Source of the DNA: Frankiaceae bacterium
GTDB taxonomy: Bacteria > Actinomycetota > Actinomycetes > BP-191
Assembly: GCA_035556555.1 (NCBI GenBank)
Contig: DATMES010000022.1
Coordinates: 7,577 to 71,576, forward strand
Direction of reading: 5' to 3'
DNA length: 64,000 nucleotides
In this document: positions 2,389 to 22,755 of the stretch, one piece after another
Position numbering within the stretch: the first letter of the stretch is position 1
Layout of the letters: every line of letters begins with the position of its first letter
Made by a program: the position numbers and the translations under genes
Notes under the pieces: generated by a model
What the model was told of the DNA's origin: nothing
Databases searched by the model: none
Seen by the model: only the letters and a program-made list of their open reading frames with translations

Positions 2389-2458
2389 GGTACGGACTGC
2401 CAAAGTCACCGCTTCGTGCTCGCGCCGTAGTCCGTACTCACCGGTAACAACGCGGCCC
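2389..2458. repeat. Palindromic extragenic element, copy 1 (20-bp arms GTTACCGGTGGGTACGGACT / AGTCCGTACTCACCGGTAAC, 30-nt loop)
   Basis: Near-perfect inverted repeat between convergent genes; related to the copy at 21569-21637. Confidence 0.7.
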
Positions 2459-2481
2459 CGCCCGGGGGTCCGCCGGACCCG

Positions 2482-3384
2482 CTAGAGGATCGCGATGGCG
2501 CGGGGCTCGGGGAGGCCGTTGACGAGCTCGTGCCAGCGGACGCCGTTGTCGTTGCTGACGTAGAGCGACCCGCCGGGCGCGGCGCAGACGACCTGCTCGT
2601 CCCAGGCCGACAGGCAGTACGTGTCGACGTTGCCGGCGAAGTACTCCGGCAGCCCCAGCCGTACGCGGTCGAACACCGAGTCCTCCAGCGCGCGCCGGTA
2701 CAGCGCGGCCTCCGCGCCGTCGGGCCCGGCCGACACCGACAGCACGACGTGGTCGCCGGTGACGGCGATGGCGCGGCAGTACGTGTGCGGCATGCCGCGC
2801 GACTCGACCTCCCACGTCTCGCCGGCGTCCGTCGACAGCGCCATGCCCTGCGCCGTCGCGGCGAGGACCGTCGAGGCGTAGTCGGGAACGGTCACGACCT
2901 GGTGCACGTCCCACTCGATCTCGCCGGACGGCAGCCACGTGTCGCCCGCGTCGAACGACCGCACGATGCCGCCCACGTGCACCGACGCGAACAGCGCGTC
3001 GTCCTCGTCGACGTCGAGCGACCGTACGTCCGGCGGCCCGCCCCACGGCGTGTGCCACTTGTCGCGTCCCTCGACGTCGTCGAACGCCTTCACCGGCATC
3101 AGCTCGCCGCCGCGCACCAGCCACAGGTTGGCGCCCGCGGTGCCGGCCCAGACGTCGTCGCCGTTGACGAGGACGCAGGTGATCGCGCCGCGCGTCGGCG
3201 GCAGCGTCTCGAACTCCGCGGCCCCGTCGTCGTCGACGTTCCACAACGTCCCGTCGGCCGCGAGCGCGACCGCGCCGTCGTCCGCCGCCACCACGTGCCG
3301 GAACCCGCCCTCGACGAGCTGGCGCGAGGCGCCCTCGTCGTCCACGTAGTACAGGCCGTCGTCCGTCGCCACCACGAAGCTCAT
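2482..3384 (-). CDS. BNR/Asp-box repeat protein (sialidase-like beta-propeller), cytoplasmic
   Basis: Three SxDxGxTW Asp-box motifs (SFDAGDTW, STDAGETW, SNDNGVRW); no signal peptide; ATG overlaps upstream GNAT stop (ATGA). Confidence 0.7.
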   Translation of the reverse strand: MSFVVATDDGLYYVDDEGASRQLVEGGFRHVVAADDGAVALAADGTLWNVDDDGAAEFETLPPTRGAITCVLVNGDDVWAGTAGANLWLVRGGELMPVKAFDDVEGRDKWHTPWGGPPDVRSLDVDEDDALFASVHVGGIVRSFDAGDTWLPSGEIEWDVHQVVTVPDYASTVLAATAQGMALSTDAGETWEVESRGMPHTYCRAIAVTGDHVVLSVSAGPDGAEAALYRRALEDSVFDRVRLGLPEYFAGNVDTYCLSAWDEQVVCAAPGGSLYVSNDNGVRWHELVNGLPEPRAIAIL

Positions 3385-4154
3385 GGGGCCGCATTCTGCC
3401 GTGTCGGCGGCAGATACCTCACATGCCGGTCCGCGACGCGGAAGCCGACCGACTCGTAGAGGTGCCGCGGGCCCTGGTTGGCGGGGTCGCCGACGGCGTA
3501 CACGACGGCTGTCGTCGCGCCCGCCTCGCGCAGCCGGTGGAGCGCCGCGACGCAGGCCTGGGCGCCGTACCCCTGCCTTCGATGCTCCCTGTCCGTGCCC
3601 ACGGGCTCGAGCTCGCCGCTGGCCGAGCCGGCGTCGTACCAGGCCAGCGCGTACGCCCTCCACCCGACCACGACGTCGAGGTCGCCGCGGTACGGCGGCG
3701 TCGCACGGACGGCGTCGTACGTCTCCCGCGTGAACCGCGAGCTCGTCCACGCCGCGCGGTGCAGCGCGACCCGCCGGTCGGGGTCTTGTTCTCCGGAGAC
3801 GACCCCGCTGGGGAACGGCGGCAGGTCGTCGAGGTCCCGTACGCAGTGCCACAGCCAGTCCCCCGCCTCCGTGAAGCCCGCGTCCCTCAGTGCGGCGACC
3901 TTCGGCCCCTCGGACTCCAGCGCGTAGACGCTCGCGCCCGCCTCGGCCGCCCGCGCGACGAGCTCCGGCATGGCGTCGTCACGACCGCCGAGGTGCCAGA
4001 CGTCGTCGTCGCGGAAGGCGTACGCACCCTCCACCAGAAGCGCGCGGACCAGCTCCTTGCCGAGCGACGGGTTGGCCCCCCAGGCGATGTCGCCGACGTG
4101 CTGCTCGACGTACGGGCCGTGCGTCCGCCACCGCGCGCTCGCGATCGCCTGCAT
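3381..4154 (-). CDS. GNAT family N-acetyltransferase (tandem GNAT, MshD-like architecture)
   Basis: C-terminal acetyl-CoA-binding motif RQGYGAQACVAAL..LRE.GA; start assigned at MQAIASARW ATG, an upstream GTG is possible. Confidence 0.65.
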   Translation of the reverse strand: MQAIASARWRTHGPYVEQHVGDIAWGANPSLGKELVRALLVEGAYAFRDDDVWHLGGRDDAMPELVARAAEAGASVYALESEGPKVAALRDAGFTEAGDWLWHCVRDLDDLPPFPSGVVSGEQDPDRRVALHRAAWTSSRFTRETYDAVRATPPYRGDLDVVVGWRAYALAWYDAGSASGELEPVGTDREHRRQGYGAQACVAALHRLREAGATTAVVYAVGDPANQGPRHLYESVGFRVADRHVRYLPPTRQNAAP

Positions 4155-4199
4155 CGCGGCGAGGTCCTCGGGAGAGATCACCGGCCTATCGTCTACGCC

Positions 4200-4901
4200 G
4201 TGCCCTTCCTCCTCGACGACGTCGTCGTCACGCGCGGCGAGGGGGACGACCACGTACACCCGCTGGCGGACGTGTCGTTCGCGATCGCGCCCGCCCGCGC
4301 GACCGTCGTCGTGGGGCCTTCCGGCTCCGGCAAGTCGACGCTGCTGCGCCTGCTCAACCGCATGGAGGAGCCGAGCGGCGGCCGGGTCCTGCTGCACGGC
4401 AAGCCGTTGCCGGAGTACGACGTCCTCGCGCTCCGCCGCCGTGTCGGCCTGCTCATGCAGCGGCCGACGCCGTTCCCAGGGTCGGTCATCGACAACCTGC
4501 GGACCGGCGCGCCCGCGCTGTCCGAGCCCGAGGCGCTCGCGCTGCTGGCGCGGGTGGGTCTCGCGGAGACGTTCCTCCACCGCGACACCGACGAGCTCTC
4601 CGGCGGCGAGGCTCAGCGGGTCTGCCTCGCCCGCGCGCTCGCGGTCGGGCCCGAGGTGCTGCTGCTGGACGAGGCGACGAGCGCGCTGGACCCGTTCGCG
4701 GCGCAGGTCGTGGAGGGCGTCGTACGGTCGCTCGTCGACGAGGGCCTCACCGTCGTCATGGTCTCGCACGACCTCGCCCAGGCCCGCCGCGTCGCCGACG
4801 ACCTCGTCGTCGTGCTGGAGGGCCGGGTGGTCGCCGCCGGACCCGCCGTCGAGGTGCTCGCCGACCCGGCCGCGGCGGCGTACCTGAACGGCGTCGCGTG
4901 A
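4200..4901 (+). CDS. ABC transporter ATP-binding protein, FetA/YbbL-like
   Basis: Walker A GPSGSGKST, signature LSGGEAQR, Walker B LLLDEATSALD, H-loop; start is approximate (no upstream stop in frame). Confidence 0.8.
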   Translation: MPFLLDDVVVTRGEGDDHVHPLADVSFAIAPARATVVVGPSGSGKSTLLRLLNRMEEPSGGRVLLHGKPLPEYDVLALRRRVGLLMQRPTPFPGSVIDNLRTGAPALSEPEALALLARVGLAETFLHRDTDELSGGEAQRVCLARALAVGPEVLLLDEATSALDPFAAQVVEGVVRSLVDEGLTVVMVSHDLAQARRVADDLVVVLEGRVVAAGPAVEVLADPAAAAYLNGVA

Positions 4902-5704
4902 ACGACGTCCCCGTCCCGCAGTGGTGGGGCGTCGCGCTGGCGTCGTTGCTCGTCGCGGCCACTGGCGCGGTCATCGTGCGCGAACGCCTCGGCCTCGGTC
5001 GCGACGTGGTCGAGGCCGCCGTCCGCGCCGTCGTCCAGCTCGTCGTCGTCGGCTTCGTGCTGGTGTTCCTCTTCGAGCGCGCGGGCATCCCGGGCTCGCT
5101 CGGCTGGGTCGGCGGGATGGTGCTGCTCGCGGGTCGTACGGCGGGGCGGCGCGCCCGCGGCCTGCCCGGGGGCGTACGCGCCGCCACCGTCGGCATCGCC
5201 GTCGGCGTCGCCTGCACGCTCGGCCTCGTCGTCGGCGCGGGCGTCCTCGCCGCCGAGCCGCGCGTCGTCGTCCCCGTCGGCGGCATGGTCGTCAGCGCAG
5301 CCATGCAGGGCTGCTCGATCGTGCTGCAACGCGTCGCCGACGAGGTCGCGTCGTCGCGGCCGCTCGTCGAGGCGCGGCTGGCGCTCGGGCTGCCGGGGAC
5401 GGCGGCGTTCGCGCCGCACCGGCGCCTCGCGCTGCGCGCGTCGCTCGCGCCGGCCATCGACCAGACCAAGGTCGTCGGGCTCATCGCGCTGCCCGGCACC
5501 ATGACCGGCCTCATCATCGCGGGCGTCTCGCCGCTTACCGCGATCCGCTACCAGATCGTCGTGCAGTACATGTGGCTCGGCGCCGCCGCGATCTCCGGGC
5601 TGGTCGCCGCGCGGCTCGCGTCGCGGACCGTCTTCGACGACGCGCACCGCCTCCGCCCCCTCGTTACGGCGCGCCGCCGGAAAACTGTCACACCCCGCCC
5701 CTAA
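4898..5704 (+). CDS. ABC transporter permease, FetB/YbbM (UPF0014) family
   Basis: GTG overlaps ATPase stop (GTGA); about 268 aa polytopic membrane protein with the YbbM-like GLIALPGTMTG motif. Confidence 0.75.
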   Translation: MNDVPVPQWWGVALASLLVAATGAVIVRERLGLGRDVVEAAVRAVVQLVVVGFVLVFLFERAGIPGSLGWVGGMVLLAGRTAGRRARGLPGGVRAATVGIAVGVACTLGLVVGAGVLAAEPRVVVPVGGMVVSAAMQGCSIVLQRVADEVASSRPLVEARLALGLPGTAAFAPHRRLALRASLAPAIDQTKVVGLIALPGTMTGLIIAGVSPLTAIRYQIVVQYMWLGAAAISGLVAARLASRTVFDDAHRLRPLVTARRRKTVTPRP

Positions 5705-5715
5705 CGTCCCTCCCT

Positions 5716-7599
5716 ATGGAGCGGACCGGGGGACTGCCGTACGTCCCCGCCCTGGACGGCGTGCGCGGCGTGGCCGTGCTCGCCGTGCTGCTGTTCCACG
5801 GCGGCGTCTCGTGGCTGCCCGGCGGCTTCCTCGGGGTGGACGCGTTCTTCGTGCTGTCGGGGTACCTCATCACTGGGTTGCTCCTCGCGGGCGTGCCGCT
5901 CCGGACCTTCTGGTCCCGGCGCGTGCGGCGGCTGCTGCCTGCCCTCGCCTTGCTCGTGCTCGTCGTCCTGTGTCTCGGCTCCGTGCTCAACGCCGCACCC
6001 CGCGACGCGCTGGGCGCCTTGACCTACCTCTCCAACTGGCGGTCGTACGCCACCGGCGGCGGCTACTTCGCGTCGTTCGCCGATCCGTCGGCGTTCAAGC
6101 ACACGTGGTCGCTGGCCGTGGAGGCGCAGTTCTACGTCGTCTGGCCGCTCCTCGTGGTCTGCGTCTGCCGCCGCGCGCGCGGGCCCGTGCTCGCGGCTGC
6201 AGGCGTGGGGGCGCTCGTGTCGGCGGCGGCGATGGCGGCGTCGTTCCGGCCCGGCGGCGACCCCGCGCGGGCCTACTACGGCACCGACACCCGCATCCAG
6301 GCCCTCCTCGTCGGCGCCGCGCTGGCCGTCGTGCTCGCGCGCGCAGCGGTGCCCCGCGCGATCGGCTGGTCGGGCCTCGCGGGCGTGGGGCTGACGCTGT
6401 GGGTCTGGCACACCGCGTCCGGCACCTCCGACGACCTCTACGGCGGCGGCTTCCTGCTAGCGGCCGTCGCCACCGCGGCCGTCATCGCCTCGGTCGTGCT
6501 GCTGCCGTCCGGGCCGCTGGCCCGCGCGCTGTCCGTACGCCCCCTGCGCGCGGTCGGCATCGTGTCGTATGGCGTCTACCTCTGGCACTGGCCGGTGTTC
6601 CTGCTGCTCACCGGCGCGCGCACCGGCCTGAGCGGCTTCTGGCTCCTCGCGCTGCGGTTCGCGGCGACCGCCGCCTGCACCGCCGTCTCCTGGTACGCCG
6701 TCGAGGTCCCCGCCCGCACCTGGTCGCCCCGGCTGCCGCCGCTGCACGTACGGCGGGTGGCGCTGGCGGGCGGCACGGCGTTCGCGCTGGCGGCGTTCCT
6801 CGCGCTGTCGCCCGGCACGCCGCCGGGCCCGCCATCCGCGGCGGCTGACCCGCTACCCACGGCGTCACCCACGGCCGCGCGGCGCCCCGCCCGGGCGCCC
6901 ACGACGACCGCGCCGACGACACCCGCGCCCACCCGGGCCGCCGGCGGGCCGACGCGGGTGCTGGTCCTCGGCGACTCGGTGGCGCAGACGCTCGCGGCCG
7001 GGCTGCCCGACGGCGACGGGTTCGACGTCGTCAACGCCGCCGCCCTCGGCTGCGGCCTCGTCACCGGCGGGTACCGCTACTTCGGCGGCCAGTACGACGA
7101 CCCGCCGCACTGCGTCCAGTGGCCGCAGACCTGGGGCGCGGCCGTGGCACGGCACCAGCCGGACCTCGTCGCGGTGCTCGTCGGCCGGTGGGAGGTCATG
7201 GACCGCCGCCTCGACGGGGAGTGGCGGCGGCTGGGGGACGCGGCGTTCGACGCGTACGTCACCGCCCAGCTCGACCGCGCCGTCGACGTGGTCTCCGCCG
7301 GCGGCACCAAGGTCGCGCTGGTCACGGCGCCGTACTACCTCCGCGGCGAACGCCCCGACGGCGGCCGCTTCCCCGAGGACGACCCCGCCCGCGTCGACCG
7401 CTTCAACGCCCTGCTCCGCGACGTCGCGGCGAGACGCGGCGTCGCCGTTGTGGAGCTCGGGGCGGCGCTCGCGCCGGAGGGGACGTTCACGCGGCACATC
7501 AACGGCACCCTCGTCCGCTACGACGGCGTCCACATCAGCGGCGCCGGCGCGCGCATGCTGCGCCCCTGGCTCCTCCGCCAGCTCACCGCCGCCCTCTGA
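5716..7599 (+). CDS. Acyltransferase-3 (OafA/OatA-like) membrane domain fused to a C-terminal SGNH hydrolase domain
   Basis: N-terminal 10-TM acyltransferase-3 region (FHGGVSWLPGGFLGVDAFFVLSGYLIT); Pro/Thr linker; SGNH block VLVLGDSVA. Confidence 0.85.
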   Translation: MERTGGLPYVPALDGVRGVAVLAVLLFHGGVSWLPGGFLGVDAFFVLSGYLITGLLLAGVPLRTFWSRRVRRLLPALALLVLVVLCLGSVLNAAPRDALGALTYLSNWRSYATGGGYFASFADPSAFKHTWSLAVEAQFYVVWPLLVVCVCRRARGPVLAAAGVGALVSAAAMAASFRPGGDPARAYYGTDTRIQALLVGAALAVVLARAAVPRAIGWSGLAGVGLTLWVWHTASGTSDDLYGGGFLLAAVATAAVIASVVLLPSGPLARALSVRPLRAVGIVSYGVYLWHWPVFLLLTGARTGLSGFWLLALRFAATAACTAVSWYAVEVPARTWSPRLPPLHVRRVALAGGTAFALAAFLALSPGTPPGPPSAAADPLPTASPTAARRPARAPTTTAPTTPAPTRAAGGPTRVLVLGDSVAQTLAAGLPDGDGFDVVNAAALGCGLVTGGYRYFGGQYDDPPHCVQWPQTWGAAVARHQPDLVAVLVGRWEVMDRRLDGEWRRLGDAAFDAYVTAQLDRAVDVVSAGGTKVALVTAPYYLRGERPDGGRFPEDDPARVDRFNALLRDVAARRGVAVVELGAALAPEGTFTRHINGTLVRYDGVHISGAGARMLRPWLLRQLTAAL

Positions 7600-7632
7600 C
7601 CGTCCCCCGGCCCCCCGTCGGCCCGCACCCCG

Positions 7633-7662
7633 CCCCCGTCGCACCCGCACCCGCACCCGCAC
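7633..7662. repeat. Short (GCACCC)n hexamer tandem repeat in a convergent intergenic region
   Basis: cacccgcacccgcacccgcacc read directly. Confidence 0.5.
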
Positions 7663-7672
7663 CTCTGATCAT

Positions 7673-8533
7673 TTAGCGGCGGACGCGGTCCAGGAAGTCG
7701 CGCACGACCTCGAGGTAGCGGTCCTGCTCCTCGACGAACGTCATGTGCCCGCTCCGCTCGAACACCACCAGCTCCGCCCCCGGCACCCCCTCCGCGATCG
7801 CCTCGGCGGCCTCCGGGGGGCACGTACGGTCGTGCCGACCGGCCAGAACCAGCACCGGGTGCTCGACCGAGCCCAGAGCGGCCTCGACCTCGATGCCGCC
7901 GTACGACGCCGTCGCGAAGTGCCGCAGCACGTCCGGCGACCCGGCGAGCCCGGCGGTGCGGGCGTTGTAGTCGGCGATGCGCGGGTCGCGCGGGTCGGCG
8001 AAGTGCCACGGCGCCTGGTCCGCGAGGAGGCGTTCGACCTCCTCGGCGGACGTCACCGACGCCTCGGCCTCCCACGACGCCGTCACCTGGTCGCGCAGCT
8101 CCTCCGGCTCGAACGCCGCCAGCCGGTCGCCCAGCCCGTCGAGGTAGCGGGCCGACGGCAGCCCGCTCGACACGATCGTCCCCGCCGGCTCCCCGGCGAA
8201 GTCGACGGCGTGCTGCAGGGCGACGAACGCGCCGTACGAGTGCCCGAGGACGGCGTACGGGCCGTAGCCGAGCGCGGCGCCCAGCGCCTGCACGTCGGCG
8301 GCCATCTGCTGCAGCGTCCACGTCTCGGGCGGGCACGATTCGGAACGCCCCTGCGCCCGCTGGTCCACGAGCACCAGCCGGTAGTGGTCGGTCAGCGGGT
8401 CGAGGTAGTCGGCGAACATGTGGTGGTCGAGCCCGGGGCCGCCGTGCAGCACCAGCACGGGGAACCCCTCGCCGCGCTCCACGACGTACAGCTTCGTGTC
8501 CCCCACCGAGACGTAACGCTCGTTCTGGTCCAT
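7673..8533 (-). CDS. Alpha/beta hydrolase (proline iminopeptidase-like)
   Basis: HGGPG oxyanion motif and GHSYG nucleophile elbow; 286 aa. Confidence 0.8.
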   Translation of the reverse strand: MDQNERYVSVGDTKLYVVERGEGFPVLVLHGGPGLDHHMFADYLDPLTDHYRLVLVDQRAQGRSESCPPETWTLQQMAADVQALGAALGYGPYAVLGHSYGAFVALQHAVDFAGEPAGTIVSSGLPSARYLDGLGDRLAAFEPEELRDQVTASWEAEASVTSAEEVERLLADQAPWHFADPRDPRIADYNARTAGLAGSPDVLRHFATASYGGIEVEAALGSVEHPVLVLAGRHDRTCPPEAAEAIAEGVPGAELVVFERSGHMTFVEEQDRYLEVVRDFLDRVRR

Positions 8534-8542
8534 CCGGGCATC

Positions 8543-8968
8543 ATGCCTGCCATGGACCCGACCAACCTGCTCGCCGGCCCGCCGCCGACCCTGCTGCCCG
8601 CCGACAACCCCGCCGCCGACGACGCGCTCGCCCGCGGCGACGATCCGAAGACCGTCGCGGCGGCGCACCCGACGCACCTCGCGGCGTGGGCGGCGCTGGC
8701 GGACGCGGCGTACGAGAGCGGGGAGGCCGTCGCGTCGTACGCCTACGCCCGCGTCGGCTACCACCGCGGCCTCGACGCGCTGCGGCGCAACGGCTGGAAG
8801 GGCCACGGCCCCGTGCCGTGGAGCCACGAACCCAACCGCGGCTTCCTCCGCGCCCTCCACGCGCTCGGCAGGGCGGCCGGCGCCATCGGGGAGAACGACG
8901 AGGCGGAACGGTGCGCGACGTTCCTCCGCGACTGCGACCCGGCGGCCGCGGCGGCGCTCCGGACCTAG
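8543..8968 (+). CDS. Conserved actinobacterial hypothetical protein (DUF3151-like)
   Basis: 141 aa; conserved HPTHLAAWAALADAAYESGE...YAYARVGYHRGLDALRRNGWKG region. Confidence 0.55.
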   Translation: MPAMDPTNLLAGPPPTLLPADNPAADDALARGDDPKTVAAAHPTHLAAWAALADAAYESGEAVASYAYARVGYHRGLDALRRNGWKGHGPVPWSHEPNRGFLRALHALGRAAGAIGENDEAERCATFLRDCDPAAAAALRT

Positions 8969-9357
8969 TCCGCCGCGGGTCGCGCGCGCCGGCGCCCGGA
9001 CAGCAGCGGCGCCCCGGGGAACGACGACATCCGCGTTCCCACGTCGTCGATGACGCTCATGATCCGGCCGGTGGTGGCCGCGATCGCGGCGACCTGCTTC
9101 TGGGTGTCGTTGACGCCGACGACGATCGACTGGATCTCGTCGCCCTCCAGCGTGCGGGCCAGCTTCTCCAGTCCAGGCGCGAGCTCCCGCAGTGGCTGCT
9201 CCAGGTCGTCGAGAAGGCTGTCGAGGCGACGTACGACGCGCTGCGCGTCGATCGCCAGCTCCACGACCGCGCGGACCGCGTCGGGGACGGCGAGCAGCGC
9301 CTGGGTCTGCGTGTTGAGCAGGTCGACGACGTCGGACAGGCCGGGCAGCTTGGGCAT
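8965..9357 (-). CDS. Hypothetical protein (130 aa)
   Basis: ATG start; high GC3; no recognisable domain; convergent overlap with the upstream gene. Confidence 0.45.
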
Positions 9358-9445
9358 GGCGAGGAGCGTACGGCGTCCGGTAACATCTCTCCGCAAGAGG
9401 CCTCGGCACTTGCCGGGGTCTTTCGTTTTGTCCGGAGGAGCGCGT

Positions 9446-10729
9446 ATGCCCGCCGTCGTCATCGTCGGGGCACAGTGGGGAGACGAGGGGAAGGGCAAGG
9501 CCACCGACCTGCTCGGTGACCGGCTCGACTACGTCGTCCGCTACAACGGCGGCAACAACGCCGGCCACACCGTCGTCATCGGCAGCGAGAAGTACGCGCT
9601 GCACCTGCTCCCCACCGGCATCCTCACGCCGACGCTCGTGCCGGTCATCGGCAACGGCGTCGTCGTCGACCTCGGCGTCCTCTTCGAGGAGATCGACCTG
9701 CTGGACGCGCGCGGCGTCGACACCTCGCGGCTGCTCATCAGCGCCAACGCGCACGTCATCACGCCGTACCACCGCACCATGGACAAGGTGGTCGAGAGGT
9801 TCCTCGGCAACGCCAAGCTCGGCACCACCGGCCGCGGGATCGGGCCCGCGTACGCCGACAAGATGTCCCGCGTCGGGGTGCGGGTGCAGGACCTGTTCGA
9901 CGAGAAGATCCTGCGGCAGAAGGTCGACGGCGCGCTCAAGGCCAAGAACCAGCTGCTCACCAAGGTCTACAACCGCAAGGCCATCGAGACCGACGCGGTC
10001 GTGGACGAGCTGCTGACGTACGCCGACCGCCTCCAGCCGCTCGTCGCCGACACCGCCCTGCTGCTGCACCACGCGCTGCTCGACGGCAAGAACGTCCTGC
10101 TCGAAGGCGGCCAGGCCACCATGCTCGACGTCGACCACGGGACGTATCCGTTCGTCACGTCGTCCAACCCGACCACCGGCGGCGCCTGCACCGGCTCCGG
10201 CATCGCGCCGCGGCACCTCACGCGCGCGATCGGCGTGCTCAAGGCGTACACGACGCGGGTCGGCGAGGGGCCGTTCCCGACCGAGCTGAACGACGAGTGG
10301 GGCACGCTGCTGCGCGAGAACGGCGGCGAGTTCGGCACCACCACGGGGCGGCCACGTCGGTGCGGGTGGTTCGACGCCGTCATCGCCCGCTACGCCGCGC
10401 GCATCAACGGCCTCACCGACTTCTTCCTCACCAAGCTCGACGTGCTCTCCGGCATCGAGCGCATCCCCGTCTGCGTCGGCTACCGCGTCGGCGGCACGGT
10501 CTTCGACGAGATGCCGGTGTCGCAGTCGGACTTCCACCACGCCGAGCCGGTGTACGAAGAGCTCCCCGGCTGGGACGACGACATCACCGGCGCAACGACG
10601 TTCGAGGACCTGCCGAAGAACGCTCAGGCGTACGTCAAGGCGCTGGAGGAGATGTCCGGCGCGCCCATCAGCGCCATCGGCGTCGGCCCCGGCCGTACGC
10701 AGACGGTGGTCGTCAGGGACTTGGTCTAA
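9446..10729 (+). CDS. purA: Adenylosuccinate synthetase
   Basis: GGAGGAG RBS; N-terminal [10 protein letters not shown]-loop; full-length colinear PurA. Confidence 0.95.
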
Positions 10730-14274: not shown

Positions 14275-15572
14275 TCGGGCGGTACACCCTCCCCGAGATG
14301 GGCCGGGTCTGGTCCGAGGCCCACAAGTACGAGCTCTGGTGCCAGGTCGAGACCCTCGTCCTGGAAGCCCACGCCGCGGCGGGCGTCGTCCCCGCCGACT
14401 GCGTCGAGCCTGTCAAGAACGCGCCGCCGCCCACCCCCGAGGCGGTCGACGAGATCGAGCAGGTGACGCAGCACGACGTCATCGCGTTCCTGTCGGCCTG
14501 GGCGGACAACACGACACCGCGCGAGGCGGCGGCGTACGTCCACTTCGGCATGACGAGCAGCGACCTGCTCGACACCGCGCTGGCGCTGCAGCTCACCGAC
14601 GCCACCGACATCCTGCTGGCCAAGGCCGACGCCCTCGTCGGCCACCTCCGCGGCCTGGGTCTCGCGCACCGTGACACGGTCAAGGTCGGCCGTACGCACG
14701 GTGTCCACGCCGAGCCCGACACGTTCGGCCACACGGTCGCGAACTTCGCGTTCGCCATGGCCCGCAGCCGCGACCGGCTCCGGCGCGCCCGCGAGGCCGT
14801 CGCTATCGCCAAGATCAGCGGCGCGGTGGGGACGTACTCCAACATCGACGACGACGTCGAGCGCCACGTCGCCGCGCAGCTCGGCCTGACCCCCGCCGAC
14901 GCCGCGACGCAGGTCGTGATCCGCGACGGCATCAGCGAGTGGGTCTCCGCGCTCGGCGTCATGGCGACGGTCTGCGAGGCCGTCGCGCTGGAGGTACGCC
15001 ACGGCCAGCGCACCGAGGTACGCGAGCTCGAGGAGCCGTTCAGGAAGGGCCAGAAGGGCTCCTCCGCGATGCCGCACAAGCGCAACCCGATCCTCTGCGA
15101 ACGCATCTGCGGTCTGGCCCGCGTCGTCCGCGCGCAGGTCGTCCCCGTCATGGAGGGCATCCCGCTCTGGCACGAGCGCGACATCAGCCACTCCTCCGTC
15201 GAGCGGATCGCGCTCCCCGACGCCGCGATCGGCACCGACTACCTGCTGCACCTCACGACCAAGCTCGTCACCGGCCTCACCGTCGACGCCGAGCGGATGC
15301 GCGCCAACCTCGACGCGACCGGCGGCCTCATCTACACGAGCGCCGTCCTGCTGGAGCTGGTGGAGGCAGGCCTCTCCCGCGAGGACGCGTACGCCGTCAC
15401 GCAGGCCGCGGCGATGGAGACGTGGCAGAGCGGGGTGCCGTTCCGCGAGACGCTGCGCAAGCACCCCGAGGCCGACGCCCTCACCGACGAACGCCTCGAC
15501 GAGGTCTGCCGCCCCGACCGCTACCTCTCGCGCCTCGGCCCGGTGTTCGACCGGCTGGCGTCGCTGGCCTGA
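14271..15572 (+). CDS. purB: Adenylosuccinate lyase
   Basis: ATGA overlap with the purE stop; fumarate-lyase signature GSSAMPHKRNP. Confidence 0.95.
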   Translation: MIGRYTLPEMGRVWSEAHKYELWCQVETLVLEAHAAAGVVPADCVEPVKNAPPPTPEAVDEIEQVTQHDVIAFLSAWADNTTPREAAAYVHFGMTSSDLLDTALALQLTDATDILLAKADALVGHLRGLGLAHRDTVKVGRTHGVHAEPDTFGHTVANFAFAMARSRDRLRRAREAVAIAKISGAVGTYSNIDDDVERHVAAQLGLTPADAATQVVIRDGISEWVSALGVMATVCEAVALEVRHGQRTEVRELEEPFRKGQKGSSAMPHKRNPILCERICGLARVVRAQVVPVMEGIPLWHERDISHSSVERIALPDAAIGTDYLLHLTTKLVTGLTVDAERMRANLDATGGLIYTSAVLLELVEAGLSREDAYAVTQAAAMETWQSGVPFRETLRKHPEADALTDERLDEVCRPDRYLSRLGPVFDRLASLA

Positions 15573-16615
15573 TGCGGACGCTCGCGGCGGCCCTGGTCCT
15601 GGTGGCCGCCGTCGCGTGCACGAACGACGGCGAACCCGAGCCCACGTCGGCGCCGACCCCCACGGCCTCGGCCACGCGCGAGCCGATCGGCGGGACGCTC
15701 GGTTTCACGACGGCCCGCCAGGTCCGGCTCGCGCTGCCCGACGGCACGGTGCGGACGCTCGCCGGCCAGGCGCCCGAGGCCGACTCGATCGCGTGGACCG
15801 GCGACGGCAGGTACGTCGGCTGGTTCCAGCAGGCGCCGGGCGGCGGGTCCGCGCTCGTCGTCCACGAGCCGGCGACCTCGCGTACCGCGACCTGGGAGGA
15901 GCCGAACCTCTCGACGGAGGGGCTTCTGGGCACCGAGACCGGTTTCGTCACGACGTACCGCCCGGCGGGGAAGCGCTCCATGCTGGTCGTCGCCGACCCG
16001 GCGAAGATGCTCGCCGGCGGCAAGCCCCGCGTCGTCCCGCTCCGGCTGCGCGCCGGCGCGCTGCTCACGGCGAGGGGCCCGGTCCTCGTGGAGGAGCCGA
16101 AGCCCGGCGCGGCGTTCGCGGGCGGCCCGTCGACCGTGTACGAGCTCACCACGGACGGCCGCGCGACGCCGTTCTTCGCCAACCCGCGCGACTACCCGGT
16201 CCACCACGCGGCCGTCACCACCGACGGGCGCCGGGTCGTGCACAGCGCGGGCGACCGCATCAACCGGGACCGCACCAGGGAGTGGGTCGTCGTCCGTGAC
16301 CTCGCCGCGAAGCGCGAGCTGCCCATCGAGTCGCCGGTACGCCGCCGCGCCGAGCCGGCCGTGCTCTCCATCGTGACCGGCGCGGACGGCCGGATCGTCG
16401 CCACCCTCGCCTACCTCGGTCCCCAGGGCGAGGACGTCGCGAGCGAGGCGTACGCGCTCGTCGACGACGGGTGGAGGCACGTCGCGGCCGACGCGCGGTG
16501 GGCGGCGAGCGGGCCGGACGAGAGGCTCGCCGTGATCACCAGGGACGACCAGCTCCAGATCGGCGGCGACGTCTTCGCCGAGGGCGTGCAGGCCGCCGCG
16601 TGGGCGCCCGCGTAG
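15572..16615 (+). CDS. Putative lipoprotein (347 aa)
   Basis: TGATG overlap with the purB stop; signal plus lipobox LVAAVAC; no recognisable domain. Confidence 0.55.
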   Translation: MRTLAAALVLVAAVACTNDGEPEPTSAPTPTASATREPIGGTLGFTTARQVRLALPDGTVRTLAGQAPEADSIAWTGDGRYVGWFQQAPGGGSALVVHEPATSRTATWEEPNLSTEGLLGTETGFVTTYRPAGKRSMLVVADPAKMLAGGKPRVVPLRLRAGALLTARGPVLVEEPKPGAAFAGGPSTVYELTTDGRATPFFANPRDYPVHHAAVTTDGRRVVHSAGDRINRDRTREWVVVRDLAAKRELPIESPVRRRAEPAVLSIVTGADGRIVATLAYLGPQGEDVASEAYALVDDGWRHVAADARWAASGPDERLAVITRDDQLQIGGDVFAEGVQAAAWAPA

Positions 16616-16632
16616 ATGAGAGACTGGCGCCC

Positions 16633-17130
16633 GTGACCCCCGAGGAGTTCCTGGCCGAGGCCGAACGCCGCCTCGCCGCGAACAAGTACGCCGTGGAGCG
16701 CATCAGCCTGCGCGGCGTGCCCGCGATCGTCGGGCGGCGCAAGCCGTTCCGCGTCCAGTGGATGCTCACGCAGCTCAAGACCAGCGTCGTAGTCTGCGCG
16801 GTGCCGGAGGTGACGCTCCAGGGGTGGCTCGACTTCGTCAACGAGGCGACGCAGGTCGCGCGCGGCTTCCCGGGCGGCCTGCCGAACGGCCTCCAGTCCG
16901 GCTTCGGCGCCGTCCCCGTCCTCGCCGCCACCACCGTGGAGCCCGGCGCCGCCGGGGTCGCCCAGGGCACCAAGCCGCCGGTCGAGTGGTTCGGCGGCGT
17001 CTGCACGCCGGGCCTCGTCGACCTGACGCAGCGCCAGGTCCACGCGTTCGGCGGCAAGCAGATGGTCGGCGCCGTGTACTTCCCGTTCCTCCGCAAGCAG
17101 CGCGACCTCGTCACCAGCATCGTCCGATAA
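16633..17130 (+). CDS. Hypothetical cytoplasmic protein (165 aa)
   Basis: GTG start 18 nt after the lipoprotein stop; high GC3. Confidence 0.45.
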   Translation: MTPEEFLAEAERRLAANKYAVERISLRGVPAIVGRRKPFRVQWMLTQLKTSVVVCAVPEVTLQGWLDFVNEATQVARGFPGGLPNGLQSGFGAVPVLAATTVEPGAAGVAQGTKPPVEWFGGVCTPGLVDLTQRQVHAFGGKQMVGAVYFPFLRKQRDLVTSIVR

Positions 17131-17139
17131 AGGAGCCCC

Positions 17140-18051
17140 ATGCCCCTCGCCGCCGAAGAGTTCGCCGGTCTCACGCACGTCGGGTCCGGCAAGGTCCGCG
17201 AGCTGTTCGCGGTGGGCGACGACGCGATCCTGCTCGTCGCCTCCGACCGGATCAGCGCGTTCGACTACGTCCTCCCCACCGAGATCCCCGACAAGGGCGC
17301 GGTGCTGACGGCGCTGAGCCTGTTCTGGTTCGACCTGCTCGCGGAGATCGTGCCGAGCCACGTCATCACGACGAAGGTGGACGAGTACCCAGCCGAGCTG
17401 AAGCCGTACACCGAGCAGCTGCGCGGGCGTTCGATGCTCTGCAAGCGGCTCGCCATGGTGCCCGTCGAGTGCGTCGCGCGCGGCTACCTCACCGGCTCCG
17501 GCCTCAAGGACTACAACGCCACCGGCGAGGTCTGCGGCATCGCGCTGCCCGCCGGCCTCGTGGACGGCTCGAAGCTGCCCGCGCCGATCTTCACGCCGGC
17601 CACCAAGGCCGAGGTCGGGCTGCACGACGAGAACATCTCCGAGGAGGCCGTCGCCGCCACCGTCGGCCGCGAGCTCACCGACGAGCTCAAGCGGCTCACC
17701 ATCGGCATCTTCGAACGCGCCTCCGTCCACGCCGGCGAGCGCGGCGTCATCCTCGCCGACACCAAGTTCGAGTTCGGCCACGACGAGAACGGCGTCCTGA
17801 CCCTCGGCGACGAGGTGCTGACGCCGGACTCGTCGCGGTTCTGGCCCGCGGACACGTACGAGCCCGGCAAGGCGCAGCCGTCGTACGACAAGCAGTACGT
17901 CCGCGACTGGCTCGTCGGCTCGGGCTGGGACAAGAACAGCGAGCCGCCCGCGCTGCCCGCCGAGGTCGTCGAGAAGACGCGCGCGAAGTACGTCGAGGCG
18001 TACGAGCGGCTCACCGGCGCGTCGTTCGACGACTACCTGCGCAACGCGTAG
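17140..18051 (+). CDS. purC: Phosphoribosylaminoimidazole-succinocarboxamide synthase
   Basis: Long-form SAICAR synthetase; GKVRELF and ILADTKFEFG motifs. Confidence 0.95.
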   Translation: MPLAAEEFAGLTHVGSGKVRELFAVGDDAILLVASDRISAFDYVLPTEIPDKGAVLTALSLFWFDLLAEIVPSHVITTKVDEYPAELKPYTEQLRGRSMLCKRLAMVPVECVARGYLTGSGLKDYNATGEVCGIALPAGLVDGSKLPAPIFTPATKAEVGLHDENISEEAVAATVGRELTDELKRLTIGIFERASVHAGERGVILADTKFEFGHDENGVLTLGDEVLTPDSSRFWPADTYEPGKAQPSYDKQYVRDWLVGSGWDKNSEPPALPAEVVEKTRAKYVEAYERLTGASFDDYLRNA

Positions 18052-18236
18052 GGCGCGTCTCACCACCCGTGATCGTCGCGAGCGGCGTCCGGGATGGGGC
18101 ATCGCAAGGCGGAGGAGGCAACGCCGCGAGGTACCGTACCGGGCGTCGCACGGCAGATCGACGGGTCGTGAGACACGCCCTCCATGTGACGTAGATCACA
18201 GGGGTACGTCGCCACGAAACGGCGAAGCATGACCTT

Positions 18237-19166
18237 GTGACACGGTGGCGCCGCCTGCACGCCGGCGCGGTCGTCCTGACCCTCGTCGGCGGCTGCGGCG
18301 CGCTCGGCCTGCGCGCGCTCTCCGACGCCAAGCCGGTGAGCGTCGACGACGCCGTGGCCCGCTTCCGCGAGGGGCAGAGCGCGACGCCGTCACCGGGGTC
18401 GCCGACGAGTCCGGCGCCCACGCCGTCCGCGACCGGCACCGCCGTCCGCGGCAGCAGCGCTCCGGCCAAGCCGGGGACGAGCGGCGCGCCCACCGCGACG
18501 GCCCGGCCAGGCGGCACCACAGCGCCCAAGCCGGGGACCGCGGGGCCGAGCCTCACCGCCGCGCCCGAGGGCGTGTACGTCTACGCCACCACCGGCCACG
18601 AGACCGGCGACGCCGGCCCGACCACGTCGCGGCACGACTACCCGTCGGAGACCACGTGGACGATCCGGCGTTCGGGCTGCGGGTCGAGCCTGCGCTGGGA
18701 GCCGGTCGAGGGCCGCTGGGACGACGTCACCGACTGCGGGGACGGCAGGACCAGCAAGATCAGGACGTACGACACGATGCACACGTTCTACGGGATCTCC
18801 GAGCGGATGACGTACCAGTGCTCGGGCGACTCGTGGCTCCGTCCGCCCTCGACCGCGGCGGGGTACACGTGGGAGTTCGACTGCGTGTCGGAGCGCGCGA
18901 AGACGCACACCGAGGCGCGCATCGTCGGGATCGAACGCGTCTCCGCCGGCGACGGCACGGTCCGCGCGCTGCACGTGCGCTTCGACACGACGCTGTCCGG
19001 CAGCTCCACGGGCACCAACCCGAGCGACTACTGGCTGGCGCTCGACGGGCCGTACATGATCCGCAAGACGGGGCGCGTGGACGCGACGGTGCGCACGGAG
19101 TTCGGGACGATCGACTACCACGAGGAGTACGACGTCCGCCTCGTCTCGCGCAAGCCGCGCACGTAG
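18237..19166 (+). CDS. Putative lipoprotein with a Pro/Thr/Ser-rich linker (309 aa)
   Basis: Lipobox LVGGC; low-complexity PT linker followed by a Cys-containing globular domain. Confidence 0.5.
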   Translation: MTRWRRLHAGAVVLTLVGGCGALGLRALSDAKPVSVDDAVARFREGQSATPSPGSPTSPAPTPSATGTAVRGSSAPAKPGTSGAPTATARPGGTTAPKPGTAGPSLTAAPEGVYVYATTGHETGDAGPTTSRHDYPSETTWTIRRSGCGSSLRWEPVEGRWDDVTDCGDGRTSKIRTYDTMHTFYGISERMTYQCSGDSWLRPPSTAAGYTWEFDCVSERAKTHTEARIVGIERVSAGDGTVRALHVRFDTTLSGSSTGTNPSDYWLALDGPYMIRKTGRVDATVRTEFGTIDYHEEYDVRLVSRKPRT

Positions 19167-19204
19167 GTAGGGTTGGGCGCACCGCCAACCGAACGGAGCC
19201 CGCC

Positions 19205-19450
19205 GTGCCGCGCGTCGTCGTCGACGTCACGCTCAAGCCCGAGATCCTCGACCCGCAGGGCCAGGCCGTCGCCAACGCCCTGCCTTCGCTCGGCTTCACC
19301 GGCGTCGAGGGGGTCCGCGTCGGGAAGCACTTCGAGATCGACCTGTCGGGCGAGGTCGACGAGCAGCGGCTCGCCGACGTCCGCACGATGGCGGAGAAGC
19401 TGCTCGCCAACCCCGTCATCGAGGACTTCACCGTCCGAGTAGAGGAATGA
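19205..19450 (+). CDS. purS: Phosphoribosylformylglycinamidine synthase subunit PurS
   Basis: 81 aa; VVVDVTLKPEILDPQGQAV...GVEGVRVGKHFEIDL. Confidence 0.9.
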   Translation: MPRVVVDVTLKPEILDPQGQAVANALPSLGFTGVEGVRVGKHFEIDLSGEVDEQRLADVRTMAEKLLANPVIEDFTVRVEE

Positions 19451-20196
19451 CGCAGACCCCTGTGCCGCAGGTCGGCCAGGGGCGTCGCCCACCCGTCAAG
19501 CGCCCGTGGCCCCGGCTCCCGCTGTGGTTCTGGGCCGGCATCGGCGTGGTGCTCACCGGGTTCGTCGCCGTCGGCATCGTCGCGATCGTCACGATGGCGT
19601 CGTTCGAGGAGCAGCCCCTCTACGAACGCCGATCGCCCCCCATGGCCGGCGAGCAGTCGCACCACGTGGGCCGGGTCGTCCTGCCGGACGCGCCGGTGCG
19701 CGACGTCGAGTGCGGCGCGATCAGCGGCCTCAAGGTGCAGGGCGGCGCGGAGACCGGCGACCTGCTCGCCGAGGCACTGCGCGGGCTCTGCCGGCGGGTC
19801 GCCGCGGTGGACACGTACGGCGTCGAGCTGGCCGAGCGTATGAAGCGCCTCGCGGAGCAGGGCGCGGTGGTGTCGTTCGCCAACTTCGGGCGCACCGGCG
19901 AGCTGACCACGACGCTGCCGGGCACGCCGCCGCGCATCCTGCTCAACGACGCGTTCATCCGCGGCGGGGGGCAGTTCAAGGGGTTCCTGCTGCCGGAGCT
20001 GGCGCACGAGCTGTGGCACGCGGGCAGCGTCGACGTCACCGCCGAGGACGAGCTGACGGCGCGGAAGGTCGAGCTGGCTGCGTGCGCGCTGACGCCGTCG
20101 AGCGAGGCGTTCCGCGGGTGCACGGACGCGAAGCGGATCGTGGCCGAGGGCGACGAGAAGGCACTCGCGGGGCTGCGCGAGGCGGGATACCCCTAG
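19447..20196 (+). CDS. Membrane-anchored protein with an HExxH motif (putative Zn-dependent hydrolase), inserted between purS and purQ
   Basis: ATGA overlap with the purS stop; one N-terminal TM helix (LWFWAGIGVVLTGFVAVGIVAIV); LPELAHELWH contains HELWH. Confidence 0.55.
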   Translation: MTQTPVPQVGQGRRPPVKRPWPRLPLWFWAGIGVVLTGFVAVGIVAIVTMASFEEQPLYERRSPPMAGEQSHHVGRVVLPDAPVRDVECGAISGLKVQGGAETGDLLAEALRGLCRRVAAVDTYGVELAERMKRLAEQGAVVSFANFGRTGELTTTLPGTPPRILLNDAFIRGGGQFKGFLLPELAHELWHAGSVDVTAEDELTARKVELAACALTPSSEAFRGCTDAKRIVAEGDEKALAGLREAGYP

Positions 20197-20726
20197 GAGG
20201 GCTTCTTGCGCTCCGGCGGGAGCGCCGTCCACGTGATGGTGGCCTTGAACGTCCCCGTACCCCCGCGGTTGACGACCGCGAACGTGTAACGGCCCATCGG
20301 AAGCTGGTTGACCCGGAAGCTCAGGTGGTACTTGGTGAAGGTTTCGCTGTCCGGAAGCGGGCAGCACCCCACGATGTCGTGGCTGCGGTAGAAGTCGCCC
20401 TTGCTGGTGTACAGCACGAGCGCGCCGGCCATCGACGCGTCGAAGACGCCGCTGACGACGAACTCGCCCTTGGTCCTGCCCTTGGGGAGTGTGAGCCGGA
20501 GGTTGCGCACGCTGCAGCTCTGCTCGGTGCAGTCCTCGAGGACCGGGTCGATCTCGCCCTCGGTCGTGCCGGTGACCGGGACGGCGGCCGCGTCGAGCGT
20601 GCCGGACCACGTCCTCGACGTCGTCCGCTTGCCGTCCAGGGTGTACGTCCCCACAGCCGTCGCCGGCGACGACGCCAGCAGCGCGCTGACGGCGGTCGCG
20701 GCGAGGAGCACCCGGCGGACGTTCAC
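20193..20726 (-). CDS. Secreted hypothetical protein (178 aa)
   Basis: GTG start with AAGGGAGAG RBS; signal peptide VNVRRVLLAATAVSALLASSPATA; convergent overlap with the upstream gene. Confidence 0.5.
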   Translation of the reverse strand: MNVRRVLLAATAVSALLASSPATAVGTYTLDGKRTTSRTWSGTLDAAAVPVTGTTEGEIDPVLEDCTEQSCSVRNLRLTLPKGRTKGEFVVSGVFDASMAGALVLYTSKGDFYRSHDIVGCCPLPDSETFTKYHLSFRVNQLPMGRYTFAVVNRGGTGTFKATITWTALPPERKKPS

Positions 20727-20857
20727 GGCTCTCCCTTGCTGGGGGGTGAGAAAGCCTATTTCTGCGCCGATTGTGGGTTCTCCTTCCTGGCGCGTAAAGA
20801 CCCCGGCCCCCAGGTACGCTGGGACCGCACCCCTCCAGACCACGTCGAGGAGCCCGC

Positions 20858-21538
20858 ATGCCCGCCCGCGTCGGCGTCGTGACGTTCCCCGGATCGCTCG
20901 ACGACCGCGACGCGCTGCGCGCCGTCGAGCTGGCCGGCGGCGAACCCGTGAGCCTGTGGCACGCCGACCCGTCGCTGCACGGCGTGGACGCCGTGATCCT
21001 GCCGGGCGGGTTCTCGTACGGCGACTACCTCCGCTGTGGCGCCATCGCCCGCTTCTCGCCGGTGATGGAGGCCGTCATCGCGCACGCGCGCTCCGGCGGC
21101 CCGGTCCTCGGCATCTGCAACGGCTTCCAGGTGCTCTGCGAGTCGCACCTGCTCCCCGGCGCGCTCATGCGCAACGGCGGCCGCCGCTTCACCTGCCTCG
21201 ACCAGCGGCTGCGGATCGAGTGCGCCAAGACCGCGTGGACGACGGCGTACGCCGAGGGCGACGAGGTCACGATCGTCCTCAAGAACGGCGAGGGCCGCTT
21301 CTACGCCGACGAGCGCACGCTCGACGCGCTCGAGGCCGAGGGGCGGGTCGTCGCGCGGTACCTCGACGGCAACCCCAACGGCTCGCTCCGCGACATCGCC
21401 GGCATCACCAACGAGGACGGCAACGTCGTCGGCCTCATGCCGCACCCCGAGCACGCGGTCGAGGCGCTGACCGGCCCCGGCACCGACGGGCTCGGCTTCT
21501 TCACGAGCGTCCTGGAGCACGTCGGCCTCAAGGCGTAG
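20858..21538 (+). CDS. purQ: Phosphoribosylformylglycinamidine synthase I (glutaminase subunit)
   Basis: Class I glutamine amidotransferase; GICNGFQ nucleophile and PHPE motif. Confidence 0.95.
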
Positions 21539-21568
21539 CTGCGGGGGCCGACATCGGCCGGCGCAGAT

Positions 21569-21637
21569 GTTACTGGTGAGTAGCGACGTCGTGGCTCACC
21601 AGTTCGTGCTGGGCCGTTGTCGCTACTCACCAGTAAC
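21569..21637. repeat. Palindromic extragenic element, copy 2 (19-bp arms GTTACTGGTGAGTAGCGAC / GTCGCTACTCACCAGTAAC, with a nested 9-bp alternative stem)
   Basis: Inverted repeat read directly; same family as 2389-2458. Confidence 0.7.
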
Positions 21638-22753: not shown

Positions 22754-22755
22754 CG

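Follow-up and report, generated by a model that had tools for sequence, protein, structure and literature searches.

Two hairpins in a Frankiaceae contig probably belong to a dispersed, REPIN-like family of intergenic palindromic repeats

Introduction

Within a 64,000-nucleotide stretch of contig DATMES010000022.1, from an assembled Frankiaceae genome (hereafter the window), two hairpins of about 70 bp had been noted from the sequence alone, one between two convergent genes (copy 1) and one inside the purine operon (copy 2). Following up this earlier note, we conclude, with a probability that we put at roughly 60%, that the hairpins belong to a dispersed, non-coding, intergenic family of palindromic repeats in Frankiaceae-like actinobacteria, resembling repetitive extragenic palindromic (REP) sequences and, more specifically, REPINs (REP doublets forming hairpins). 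The kind of element is ordinary, the host is unusual: to our knowledge, REP- and REPIN-type repeats have been studied almost entirely in proteobacteria. Proteobacterial REPINs are tied to domesticated transposases, the REP-associated tyrosine transposases (RAYTs), and are seen as long-lived, vertically inherited intragenomic replicators. The family described here, from uncultured, high-G+C actinobacteria, shows the same population behavior, i.e., coexisting subfamilies, compensatory stems, genome-specific ends and overwriting at conserved sites.

Results

Both window copies consist of a stem of 19-20 bp and a loop of 30-31 nt (Table 1), copy 1 being laid out as GTTACCGGTGGGTACGGACT, 30 nt and AGTCCGTACTCACCGGTAAC. 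Their arms share a 14-mer, GTTACYGGTGRGTA, which occurs exactly four times, once per arm, against an expectation of 0.26 even with two mismatches allowed, and their loops share the string TCACCNNTTCGTGCT, found exactly twice (2406-2420 and 21596-21610). Folded as RNA and compared with shuffled sequences, copy 1 reaches -42.2 kcal/mol (z -7.5) and copy 2 -46.8 kcal/mol (z -8.5), with both strands of both copies spanning -41 to -47 kcal/mol (z -6.9 to -8.8); as DNA, the plus strands yield z scores of -5.9 and -7.9, respectively. The hairpins are real, and their stability is far above chance. The earlier note had placed copy 2 correctly, but had put copy 1 at 2389-2458, whereas it lies ten bases lower, at 2379-2448; it had also read the palindromes correctly, save for one spurious G in the loop of copy 2, which is TTCGTGCTGGGCCGTT. 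Its observation that the inner stem halves differ between the copies, yet stay complementary within each, is borne out by both window sequences. Its description of a two-copy family holds inside the window, where a covariance model of 51 copies matches the two known copies only (and one more in the closest contig), but not beyond, where we found at least 131 further copies.

Homologues of purQ place the window in an uncultured Mycobacteriales/Frankiaceae lineage. A pattern of the full outer arms (GTTACNGGTGNGTA...TACNCACCNGTAAC) gave no match in public genome contigs or viral contigs, because the two outermost bases are genome-specific and the window's own genome is absent from the collection, where its exact purQ had no match either. 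That the outermost bases vary follows from the closest contig (L001; 97% PurQ identity, ~93% nucleotide identity), in which a single copy, located between a DinB-like gene and purF, ends in CCTAC...GTAGG. A relaxed pattern retrieved 41 loci in two Frankiaceae metagenome-assembled genomes (MAGs), CBQZLL01 and JAVEEC01, and at least 117 stretches in metagenomes. Filtering for a paired stem and high G+C left at least 133 copies (132 distinct, the window's two included) from the two MAGs, several metagenomes and contigs of relatives. Overall, 38 candidates were rejected for want of a paired stem, and six matches to other phyla in the genome scan, which had the pattern on one strand only and no paired stem, were put down to chance.

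By a gene call based on G+C at third codon positions, 128 of the 133 listed copies (96%) are intergenic. Their neighbors are housekeeping genes (pfkA, ilvC, serA, rsgA, rpe, rsmB, def, ychF), and tandem clusters occur, with three copies in L014 and an A-type beside a B-type copy in L075. The density is about one per 32 kb in the window, and contigs of the metagenome population Ga0190268 carry at least 52 copies on ~2.65 Mb; a clade of uncultured Frankiaceae-like actinobacteria harbors the family, with roughly one copy every 30-50 kb. Plasmid and phage collections contained no match to it. In the window, Rfam returned no match at gathering thresholds and, at relaxed thresholds, sub-threshold generic hairpin matches to miRNA precursors only, and the searchable literature held nothing relevant on the arm sequence or on Frankia REP elements. 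This ~70-bp palindromic repeat family is previously undescribed.

When oriented by their internal TCACC unit, the elements follow a plan of three related 16-nt units, namely a left arm (L), a middle unit (M) that abuts L in inverted orientation, and a right arm (R). In the oriented alignments, L reads G[CT]TAC[CT]GGTG[AG]GTA plus an inner segment of 5-6 nt, and M, which follows directly, begins with the complement of this segment and continues with TCACC[AG]GT, L and M together forming a tight short palindrome with a 3x3 internal mismatch (GTA against CGT). After M comes a core, often TTCGTGCTC, followed by about eight bases that are hypervariable in the entropy profile, the gap from M to R comprising about 18 variable bases. 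R pairs with the whole of L to form the 19-20-bp stem, and M repeats R in direct orientation with slight changes. In each arm, the outer 14 bp are almost invariant, as is the TCACC of M. As DNA, the L-M hairpin of copy 2 has a folding energy of -9 kcal/mol (z -3.2), and that of copy 1 is weak (-5 kcal/mol, z 0). Base 21588, the first base of M in copy 2, also lengthens the stem of this copy by a G.U pair in the RNA fold.

Between subfamilies (A to D; Table 1) the inner segments of L, M and R shift jointly, e.g., GCGAC/GTCGC/GTCGC, GCGGC/GCCGC/GCCGC and CGTGC/GCACG. Across 51 copies, 93.8% of the cells in the long stem are paired and two-sided changes occur in 8 of its 20 pairs (38 cells), values that at most 1 in 500 shuffles matched; the L-M stem of 51 copies is likewise 93.8% paired, with 20 double-change cells. 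Among all 133 copies listed, L-M and L-R pairing both exceed all 300 shuffles. Independent covariation events are few, because many of the changes are inherited within subfamilies; the inner stems that differ from each other and are fully complementary number at least four. The proposal that compensatory changes hold the stems complementary stands for the family; the idea that such a change took place in situ between the two window copies does not, as these represent two old subfamilies (A and B). Both have numerous members in Ga0190268, a closely related metagenome population, where they occur together and end in GTTAC...GTAAC, as the window copies do. The generally conserved loop envisaged by the earlier note is not supported either: what reads TCACC in it is the arm repeated a third time in degenerate form, and the TTCGTGCTCG of copy 1 is atypical.

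Where copy 1 has TTCGTGCTCG, other B-type copies carry its reverse complement, GAGCACG, and the 9-nt core of copy 1, TCGTGCTCG, is the exact reverse complement of CGAGCACGA, found in the same place in a B-type copy (L084:11467-11535). This suggests that a small segment was inverted in place, with the template switched within a quasi-palindrome, or that it recombined with the loop of an A-type copy. A separate observation concerns the site of copy 1 (window 2364-2481), whose orthologue in relatives at 90% protein identity (L055:1325-1413, also L056 and L057) holds a hairpin with unrelated arms, CAACTTTGCATG and CCTGCAAAGTTG, around a loop, CCCCAGCGCCCCGCTCGTGCTCGCGG, that matches the loop of copy 1 at ~20 of 27 positions; this may reflect a core inherited from a common ancestor, the arms having been replaced, or may be a coincidence. 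That this hairpin encloses CCGCTCGTGCTCGCG prompted the idea of a mobile conserved loop in arbitrary arms, which we dropped when a scan for TTCGTGCTC with flanking inverted repeats returned only that case and a second palindromic family described below.

The terminal two base pairs of the elements track the genome rather than the subfamily, and are common to coexisting subfamilies. Ends of GTT..AAC are found in 34 of 40 type A and 10 of 12 type B copies of Ga0190268, and likewise in both window copies, while GCT..AGC is found in JAVEEC (9 of 10 B-like copies, as well as A/D-like ones) and CBQZLL (28 of 32), and CCT..AGG in Ga0190267 (17 of 20) and in the single copy of the closest contig. Between genome groups, at least 17 pairs of copies are orthologous (flanks 73-97% identical), 15 in the same orientation and two flipped. 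Upstream of serA, three genomes have the element 9 nt from the same TGTGGACAA motif and a fourth has it at the same site, in every case in the subtype that is the genome's own; Ga0190267 has C-type copies at sites that hold A/D-type or B-type copies elsewhere. The short hypervariable stretch drifts freely. Because orthologous sites carry each genome's own subtype, the elements are, to judge from these comparisons, kept at their sites but overwritten or homogenized genome by genome. REPINs at conserved positions have been described to switch to match the predominant RAYT of the genome (10.1101/2024.10.14.618302).

Site occupancy also differs between relatives. The site of copy 2 is empty in L002-L004, none of three sites compared is shared between the window and the ~93%-identical L001, and a 99%-identical relative (L054) has copy 1 at the identical site. 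Three comparisons with empty sites (purQ-yndJ in L002/L004, DinB-like-purF in L001 versus the window, and dodecin-BNR in L052/L055) revealed no clean 69-bp insertion or deletion. As a side observation, a DnaA-box-like motif, ATCTGTGGACAA, is located exactly 9 nt from the serA-upstream element in L038:2095-2110, L163 and L025, and a similar motif, TCTGTGGACA, at window 56980-56990, beside a copy of a third repeat family at 57022 (see below).

For a mobilizing gene, we searched six-frame open reading frames (ORFs) in 1.17 Mb of loci, mostly flanking copies, both MAGs being fragmentary, using IS608 TnpA, IS200 TnpA, a two-sequence profile of both, and E. coli RayT. The query sequences were validated, Pfam Y1_Tnp matching at E 1e-42 and 3e-38, and NCBIfam REP_Tyr_transpos at E 5e-53. 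The outcome is weighed in the Discussion. Among the flanking ORFs scanned against Pfam there was no recombinase domain. An integron attC site, with its RYYYAAC ... GTTRRRY cores and its cassette arrays beside an integrase, does not fit, as the GTTAC...GTAAC ends are reversed relative to such cores and the copies are scattered singly among housekeeping genes. We also considered a REPtron-like arrangement and rejected it: two copies enclose rsgA, an aquaporin/arsC pair, rpe-rsmB-def and other such genes, but no transposase. The sole non-housekeeping gene seen bracketed by two copies lies in the ilvC-serA gap (L038:1133-2047, minus strand; orthologues in L025 and L163). It encodes 304 amino acids that weakly match a DUF559/Vsr-like endonuclease (PF18741, E 6e-5, under the family cut-off), and NCBIfam and PDB sequence searches with it were empty. 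Copies bracket it in CBQZLL and JAVEEC, and Ga0190268 has only the serA-side copy and matching flank.

Several other readings of the hairpins have to be weighed. The one that survives best, though we consider it unlikely, is that of a miniature inverted-repeat transposable element (MITE), i.e., a deletion derivative of a DDE transposon, for instance of the IS630/Tc1-mariner type. The element proper would then be CYGGTGRGTA...TACYCACCRG with a duplicated TA around it, inserted into palindromic GTTAAC, GCTAGC or CCTAGG hexamers. Indeed, the arms are perfect terminal inverted repeats of 19-20 bp, presence/absence polymorphism is seen between relatives, and every copy has TA at positions 3-4 and at the mirrored place, with the two bases beyond varying between genomes; transposases that duplicate TA (IS630, piggyBac) classically target CTAG and TTAA cores. 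However, the position of the serA site is constant, yet its 'target' bases are GC, GT or CC depending on the genome, unlike a fixed target, and the TA at both ends, which could be a duplication, belongs to the palindrome, outside of which no direct repeats were found. The flanks carry a common weak extension (CCGTT left, AACGG right) and are otherwise unrelated. The 1.17 Mb of loci examined held no long parent element bounded by such arms and no transposase; apart from two partial duplications, neither solo arms nor arms paired at a distance were present. Moreover, the inner stem co-varies with the M unit although their sequence is not conserved, something that transposase binding of terminal repeats does not need. 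Insertion into pre-existing palindromes was examined separately and rejected, flank pairing being barely above that of shuffles (mean 1.10 versus 0.59 bp, 51 copies) and L005 alone having 14 bp extra.

Next in standing, and improbable in our view, is a host-selected RNA element, such as a bidirectional factor-dependent terminator or a hairpin stabilizing or processing 3' ends, whose spread would be secondary. The hairpins are certainly very stable and lie a median of 26 nt from the upstream stop codon; where both neighbors are within 300 bp, convergent contexts (17) are somewhat more frequent than divergent ones (11), with 25 in tandem; element-free relatives have other inverted repeats at the convergent junction of copy 1; and actinobacterial terminators often lack a U-tract. 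Yet 11 copies do lie between divergent genes, and the conserved serA copy is framed by the DnaA-box-like motif on one side and the -10 element of that gene's promoter on the other. Orientation is unbiased, be it relative to the gene ending beside the element (40 sense, 48 antisense) or to the gene starting there (35 sense, 41 antisense), and G.T mismatches in the stem number 28 on one strand and 41 on the other, without an excess of G.U over A.C on either. Neither window copy is followed by a T-run, a terminator scan found nothing there, and no Rfam family corresponds; the alternative hairpins of relatives are no stabler than shuffled sequence, and genome-specific termini across subfamilies are not explained by RNA stability. 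An intrinsic terminator in particular is at odds with the missing U-tract at the window copies, the random orientation and the copies in divergent regions. Taken together, the random orientation, varied contexts and lack of a T-run disfavor a terminator, one of the options of the earlier note, or another strand-specific RNA function as the reason for the family, and fit a dispersed repeat at the DNA level.

The near-invariance of the outer arm and of TCACC, the joint change of L, M and R, the termini specific to genomes across subfamilies, and the location of some copies in promoter regions could alternatively point to arrays of double-stranded DNA binding sites for a genome-specific protein (nucleoid-associated or a global regulator), with L, M and R as half-sites and M and R about three helical turns apart. 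We find this more doubtful still, since the inner stems of coexisting subfamilies differ freely (GCGAC against CGGAC) yet stay complementary, which indicates pairing and not sequence read-out, and since the family behaves as repeats, not operators, typically do: it forms tandem clusters, turns over between close relatives and has flipped at orthologous sites. Nor was a candidate protein found. Finally, that the two hairpins are a chance pair, as the presence of only two copies inside the window might suggest, is already refuted, the check for further copies in public collections having brought up at least 131 in related genomes and the arm motif being far over shuffle expectation.

The gene calls agree with the contexts given in the earlier note, copy 1 being located between convergent genes and copy 2 between purQ and a membrane-protein gene (Table 1). 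The true start of the BNR-repeat gene is probably near 3384, because its homologues are ~300 amino acids long. Spacing between purQ and yndJ is 126 nt in the window versus 6-10 nt in element-free relatives at 92-93% PurQ identity, so that copy 2 splits this junction inside the purine operon; because of this separation, a local effect on expression is plausible.

Other features of the pur cluster deserve mention. In the window, ~2.1 kb (22460-24628) lie between yndJ and purL, with ORFs at 22640-23452 (plus strand) and 23806-24405 (minus strand) that have no Pfam match; in L002-L004 purL directly follows yndJ, and in the closest relative, L001, yndJ is missing altogether. The yndJ-purL part of the cluster is a hotspot of small rearrangements. 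Just 5' of purF (GTG at 28008), at window ~27956-28010, a 50-nt sequence, TACACTGAACCGCACGGCTTCCCCGCCCGCGACCGACGAGGAGCGCCGAGTG, is nearly invariant across four genomes between which the surrounding DNA is unalignable. It has no Rfam match at gathering thresholds and may represent a conserved purF promoter and leader.

Two further repeat families came to light. The second family (TCGTGATCTTGGCGACGTTCGTGC...GCACGAACGTCGCCAAGATCACGA, ~57 nt), palindromic and unrelated to the first, has conserved ends and genome-specific inner stems, and at least 13 copies were present among the loci gathered for the first: window 62874-62929, L001:10704-10763, and L012, L018, L025, L037, L041, L055, L075, L101, L115, L137 and L151. 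The L001 copy (-61.5 kcal/mol, z -8.8) sits at the post-purQ site, which is that of copy 2 in the window. The third, intergenic family (CCCGTTCTKTGAAGATCACCACGCKCGAGACCGGCG...GCAGAGAACGAG, ~55 nt), whose ends form an inverted repeat of 8 nt, GTTCTGTG/CACAGAAC, occurs at window 2036-2091 (plus strand) and 57022-57078 (minus strand), with ~16 more copies elsewhere (e.g., L043:4607, L076:4887, L115:3138 and 3250); one copy lies just 5' of the dodecin gene, ~290 bp before copy 1.

Table 1. Hairpin copies and their parts, neighboring genes (window coordinates) and subfamilies
Feature	Position	Strand	Remarks
Copy 1, subfamily B (ACCGGTGGGTACGGAC type), 70 bp	2379-2448	+	covariance model 69.7 bits, E 2.5e-14
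Copy 1 left arm (L)	2379-2398	+	20 nt, 95% complementary to 2429-2448, one G.T
Copy 1 middle unit (M), TGCCAAAGTCACCGCT	2398-2413	+	degenerate direct copy of right arm; shares last base of L
Copy 1 loop core, TTCGTGCTCG	2413-2422	+	inverted relative to other B-type copies
Copy 1 right arm (R)	2429-2448	+	repeat finder
Copy 2, subfamily A (ACTGGTGAGTAGCGAC type), 69 bp	21569-21637	+	covariance model 87.7 bits, E 1.2e-18
Copy 2 left arm (L)	21569-21588	+	19 nt, 100% complementary to 21619-21637
Copy 2 middle unit (M), GTCGTGGCTCACCAGT	21588-21603	+	abuts L; L-M palindrome
Copy 2 right arm (R)	21619-21637	+	repeat finder
Dodecin gene	2154-2363	+	PF07311, E 5e-22; ends 15 nt ahead of copy 1
BNR-repeat protein ORF	2482-3852	-	convergent on copy 1; stop at 2482
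purQ	20858-21538	+	ends 30 nt ahead of copy 2
YndJ-like membrane protein gene	21665-22459	+	starts 27 nt past copy 2
Subfamily A			L ACTGGTGAGTAGCGAC, M GTCGCCGTTCACCAGT, R GTCGCTACTCACCAGT; at least 42 copies with this L
Subfamily B			L ACCGGTGGGTACGGAC, M degenerate, R GTCCGTACTCACCGGT; at least 9 copies, plus 3 of close variant ACCGGTGAGTACGGAC
Subfamily C			L ACTGGTGGGTACGTGC, M GCACGCGACCACCAGT, R GGACGTACCCACCAGT; at least 20 copies with this L
Subfamily D			L ...GCGGC, M GCCGC..., R GCCGC...; at least 33 copies with this L

Discussion

The window hairpins are members of a family whose copies are intergenic, covary in their stems, share genome-specific termini and have been replaced at orthologous sites. 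Among the options that the earlier note offered, a REP- or MITE-like element fits best, and in every respect testable on sequence the family is REPIN-like. Whether it belongs to the REPIN-RAYT system proper is not proven, as the loci searched yielded no RAYT.

We propose that a trans-acting activity would recognize the folded single strand, as a single-stranded DNA intermediate, together with its terminal bases, and would copy, replace or homogenize the element within a genome; single-copy HUH/Y1 transposases of the RAYT type, which act on single-stranded DNA hairpins, offer a precedent. The hairpin is probably needed for propagation by such a factor. Were propagation restricted to variants with arms that still pair, the compensatory pattern across subfamilies would follow, and were the factor genome-specific, the subfamilies of one genome would come to share terminal bases, and old sites would be overwritten with the genome's type. 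If transcribed, the hairpin (-42 to -47 kcal/mol) would probably block 3' exonucleases or pause the polymerase in either orientation, in which case a terminator or mRNA-stabilizing effect would be a side effect and not the reason for the family.

Several points weigh against a REPIN-like nature. In known systems, the RAYT gene is flanked by its own REPINs, and in our 1.17 Mb we detected no RAYT or IS200-type transposase, no match being better than E = 4; comparing the called proteins of these loci all against all brought out only orthologues between genomes and no repeated gene. The 5' GTAG motif is present only in subfamilies A and D, which have GTAG/CTAC both inside and outside, and is replaced by GTAC or GTAA in the others, B and C having GTAC inside and the window's genome type GTAA outside. 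The published REPIN scheme has nothing that corresponds to the M unit, and gene conversion between copies, with no dedicated enzyme, could also bring about the replacement seen at orthologous sites. Finally, actinobacteria go unmentioned in the main text of three REPIN papers (PMC3116915; 10.1101/2021.07.10.451892; 10.1101/2024.10.14.618302).

A bolder version of the REPIN-like reading, which we consider unlikely, is that REPIN-like replicators in Actinomycetota are kept by an enzyme other than RAYT, or by a very divergent or unlinked RAYT that our search missed, and that the two mutually exclusive hairpins of the L-M-R plan take part in copying or replacement. If this were true, hairpin-guided, site-conserving overwriting of intergenic repeats would have evolved more than once. 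Should a RAYT turn up, the REPIN-RAYT system would extend to a new phylum; if not, an unknown hairpin-recognizing activity would be indicated. On the practical side, such repeats break metagenome assemblies and can be mistaken for regulatory RNAs or terminators.

How does the family compare with known systems? Bacterial MITEs, such as the Correia elements (CREE) of Neisseria, are small, non-coding, bounded by inverted repeats and adjacent to genes, and can affect transcripts when co-transcribed. The present elements share with them the inverted-repeat bounds with TA at both ends, but neither a clear duplication of the target nor a parent insertion sequence was found for them, and they have covariation through the inner stem as well as a third internal unit. 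The REP/BIME sequences of enterobacteria and the SMAG-type GTAG repeats of Stenotrophomonas are intergenic imperfect palindromes that occur as singles, pairs and clusters. The arm of subfamily D is itself a small palindrome of this kind, GCTAC-N6-GTAGC with GTAG/CTAC; however, the unit here is a whole hairpin of 69-70 bp and not a REP of 20-40 bp, and copies are also found in divergent promoter regions. PATEs are miniature IS200/IS605 derivatives that rely on hairpins and make no target-site duplication, and the ends of IS200/IS605 elements contain two separate subterminal hairpins in the same orientation. Like PATEs, our elements carry a tetranucleotide, TTAC or CTAC, directly 5' of the part that folds, but they form one long hairpin plus an alternative L-M hairpin, and no TnpA or TnpB was found nearby. 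The IS200/IS605 family context is given in PMC6006769.

The closest likeness is to the REPIN-RAYT systems of Pseudomonas, E. coli and Neisseria (PMC3116915; 10.1101/2021.07.10.451892; 10.1101/2024.10.14.618302). REPINs consist of two inverted conserved ends around a less conserved spacer, with 71 bp between the end motifs, and form one hairpin in which compensatory changes are common (PMC3116915). Our family differs in its actinobacterial host, in having no RAYT or Y1 gene near any sampled copy, in a GTAG motif that is not constant, and in the extra M unit, which allows a second, mutually exclusive hairpin with the left arm. In common with REPINs, it is a short extragenic repeat with tens to hundreds of copies, has inverted conserved ends around a less conserved spacer, folds into a single long hairpin spanning ~70 bp with compensatory changes in the stem, occurs in clusters and tandems, and has distinct subfamilies together in one genome, while its copies persist at orthologous positions and adopt the prevailing type of their genome.

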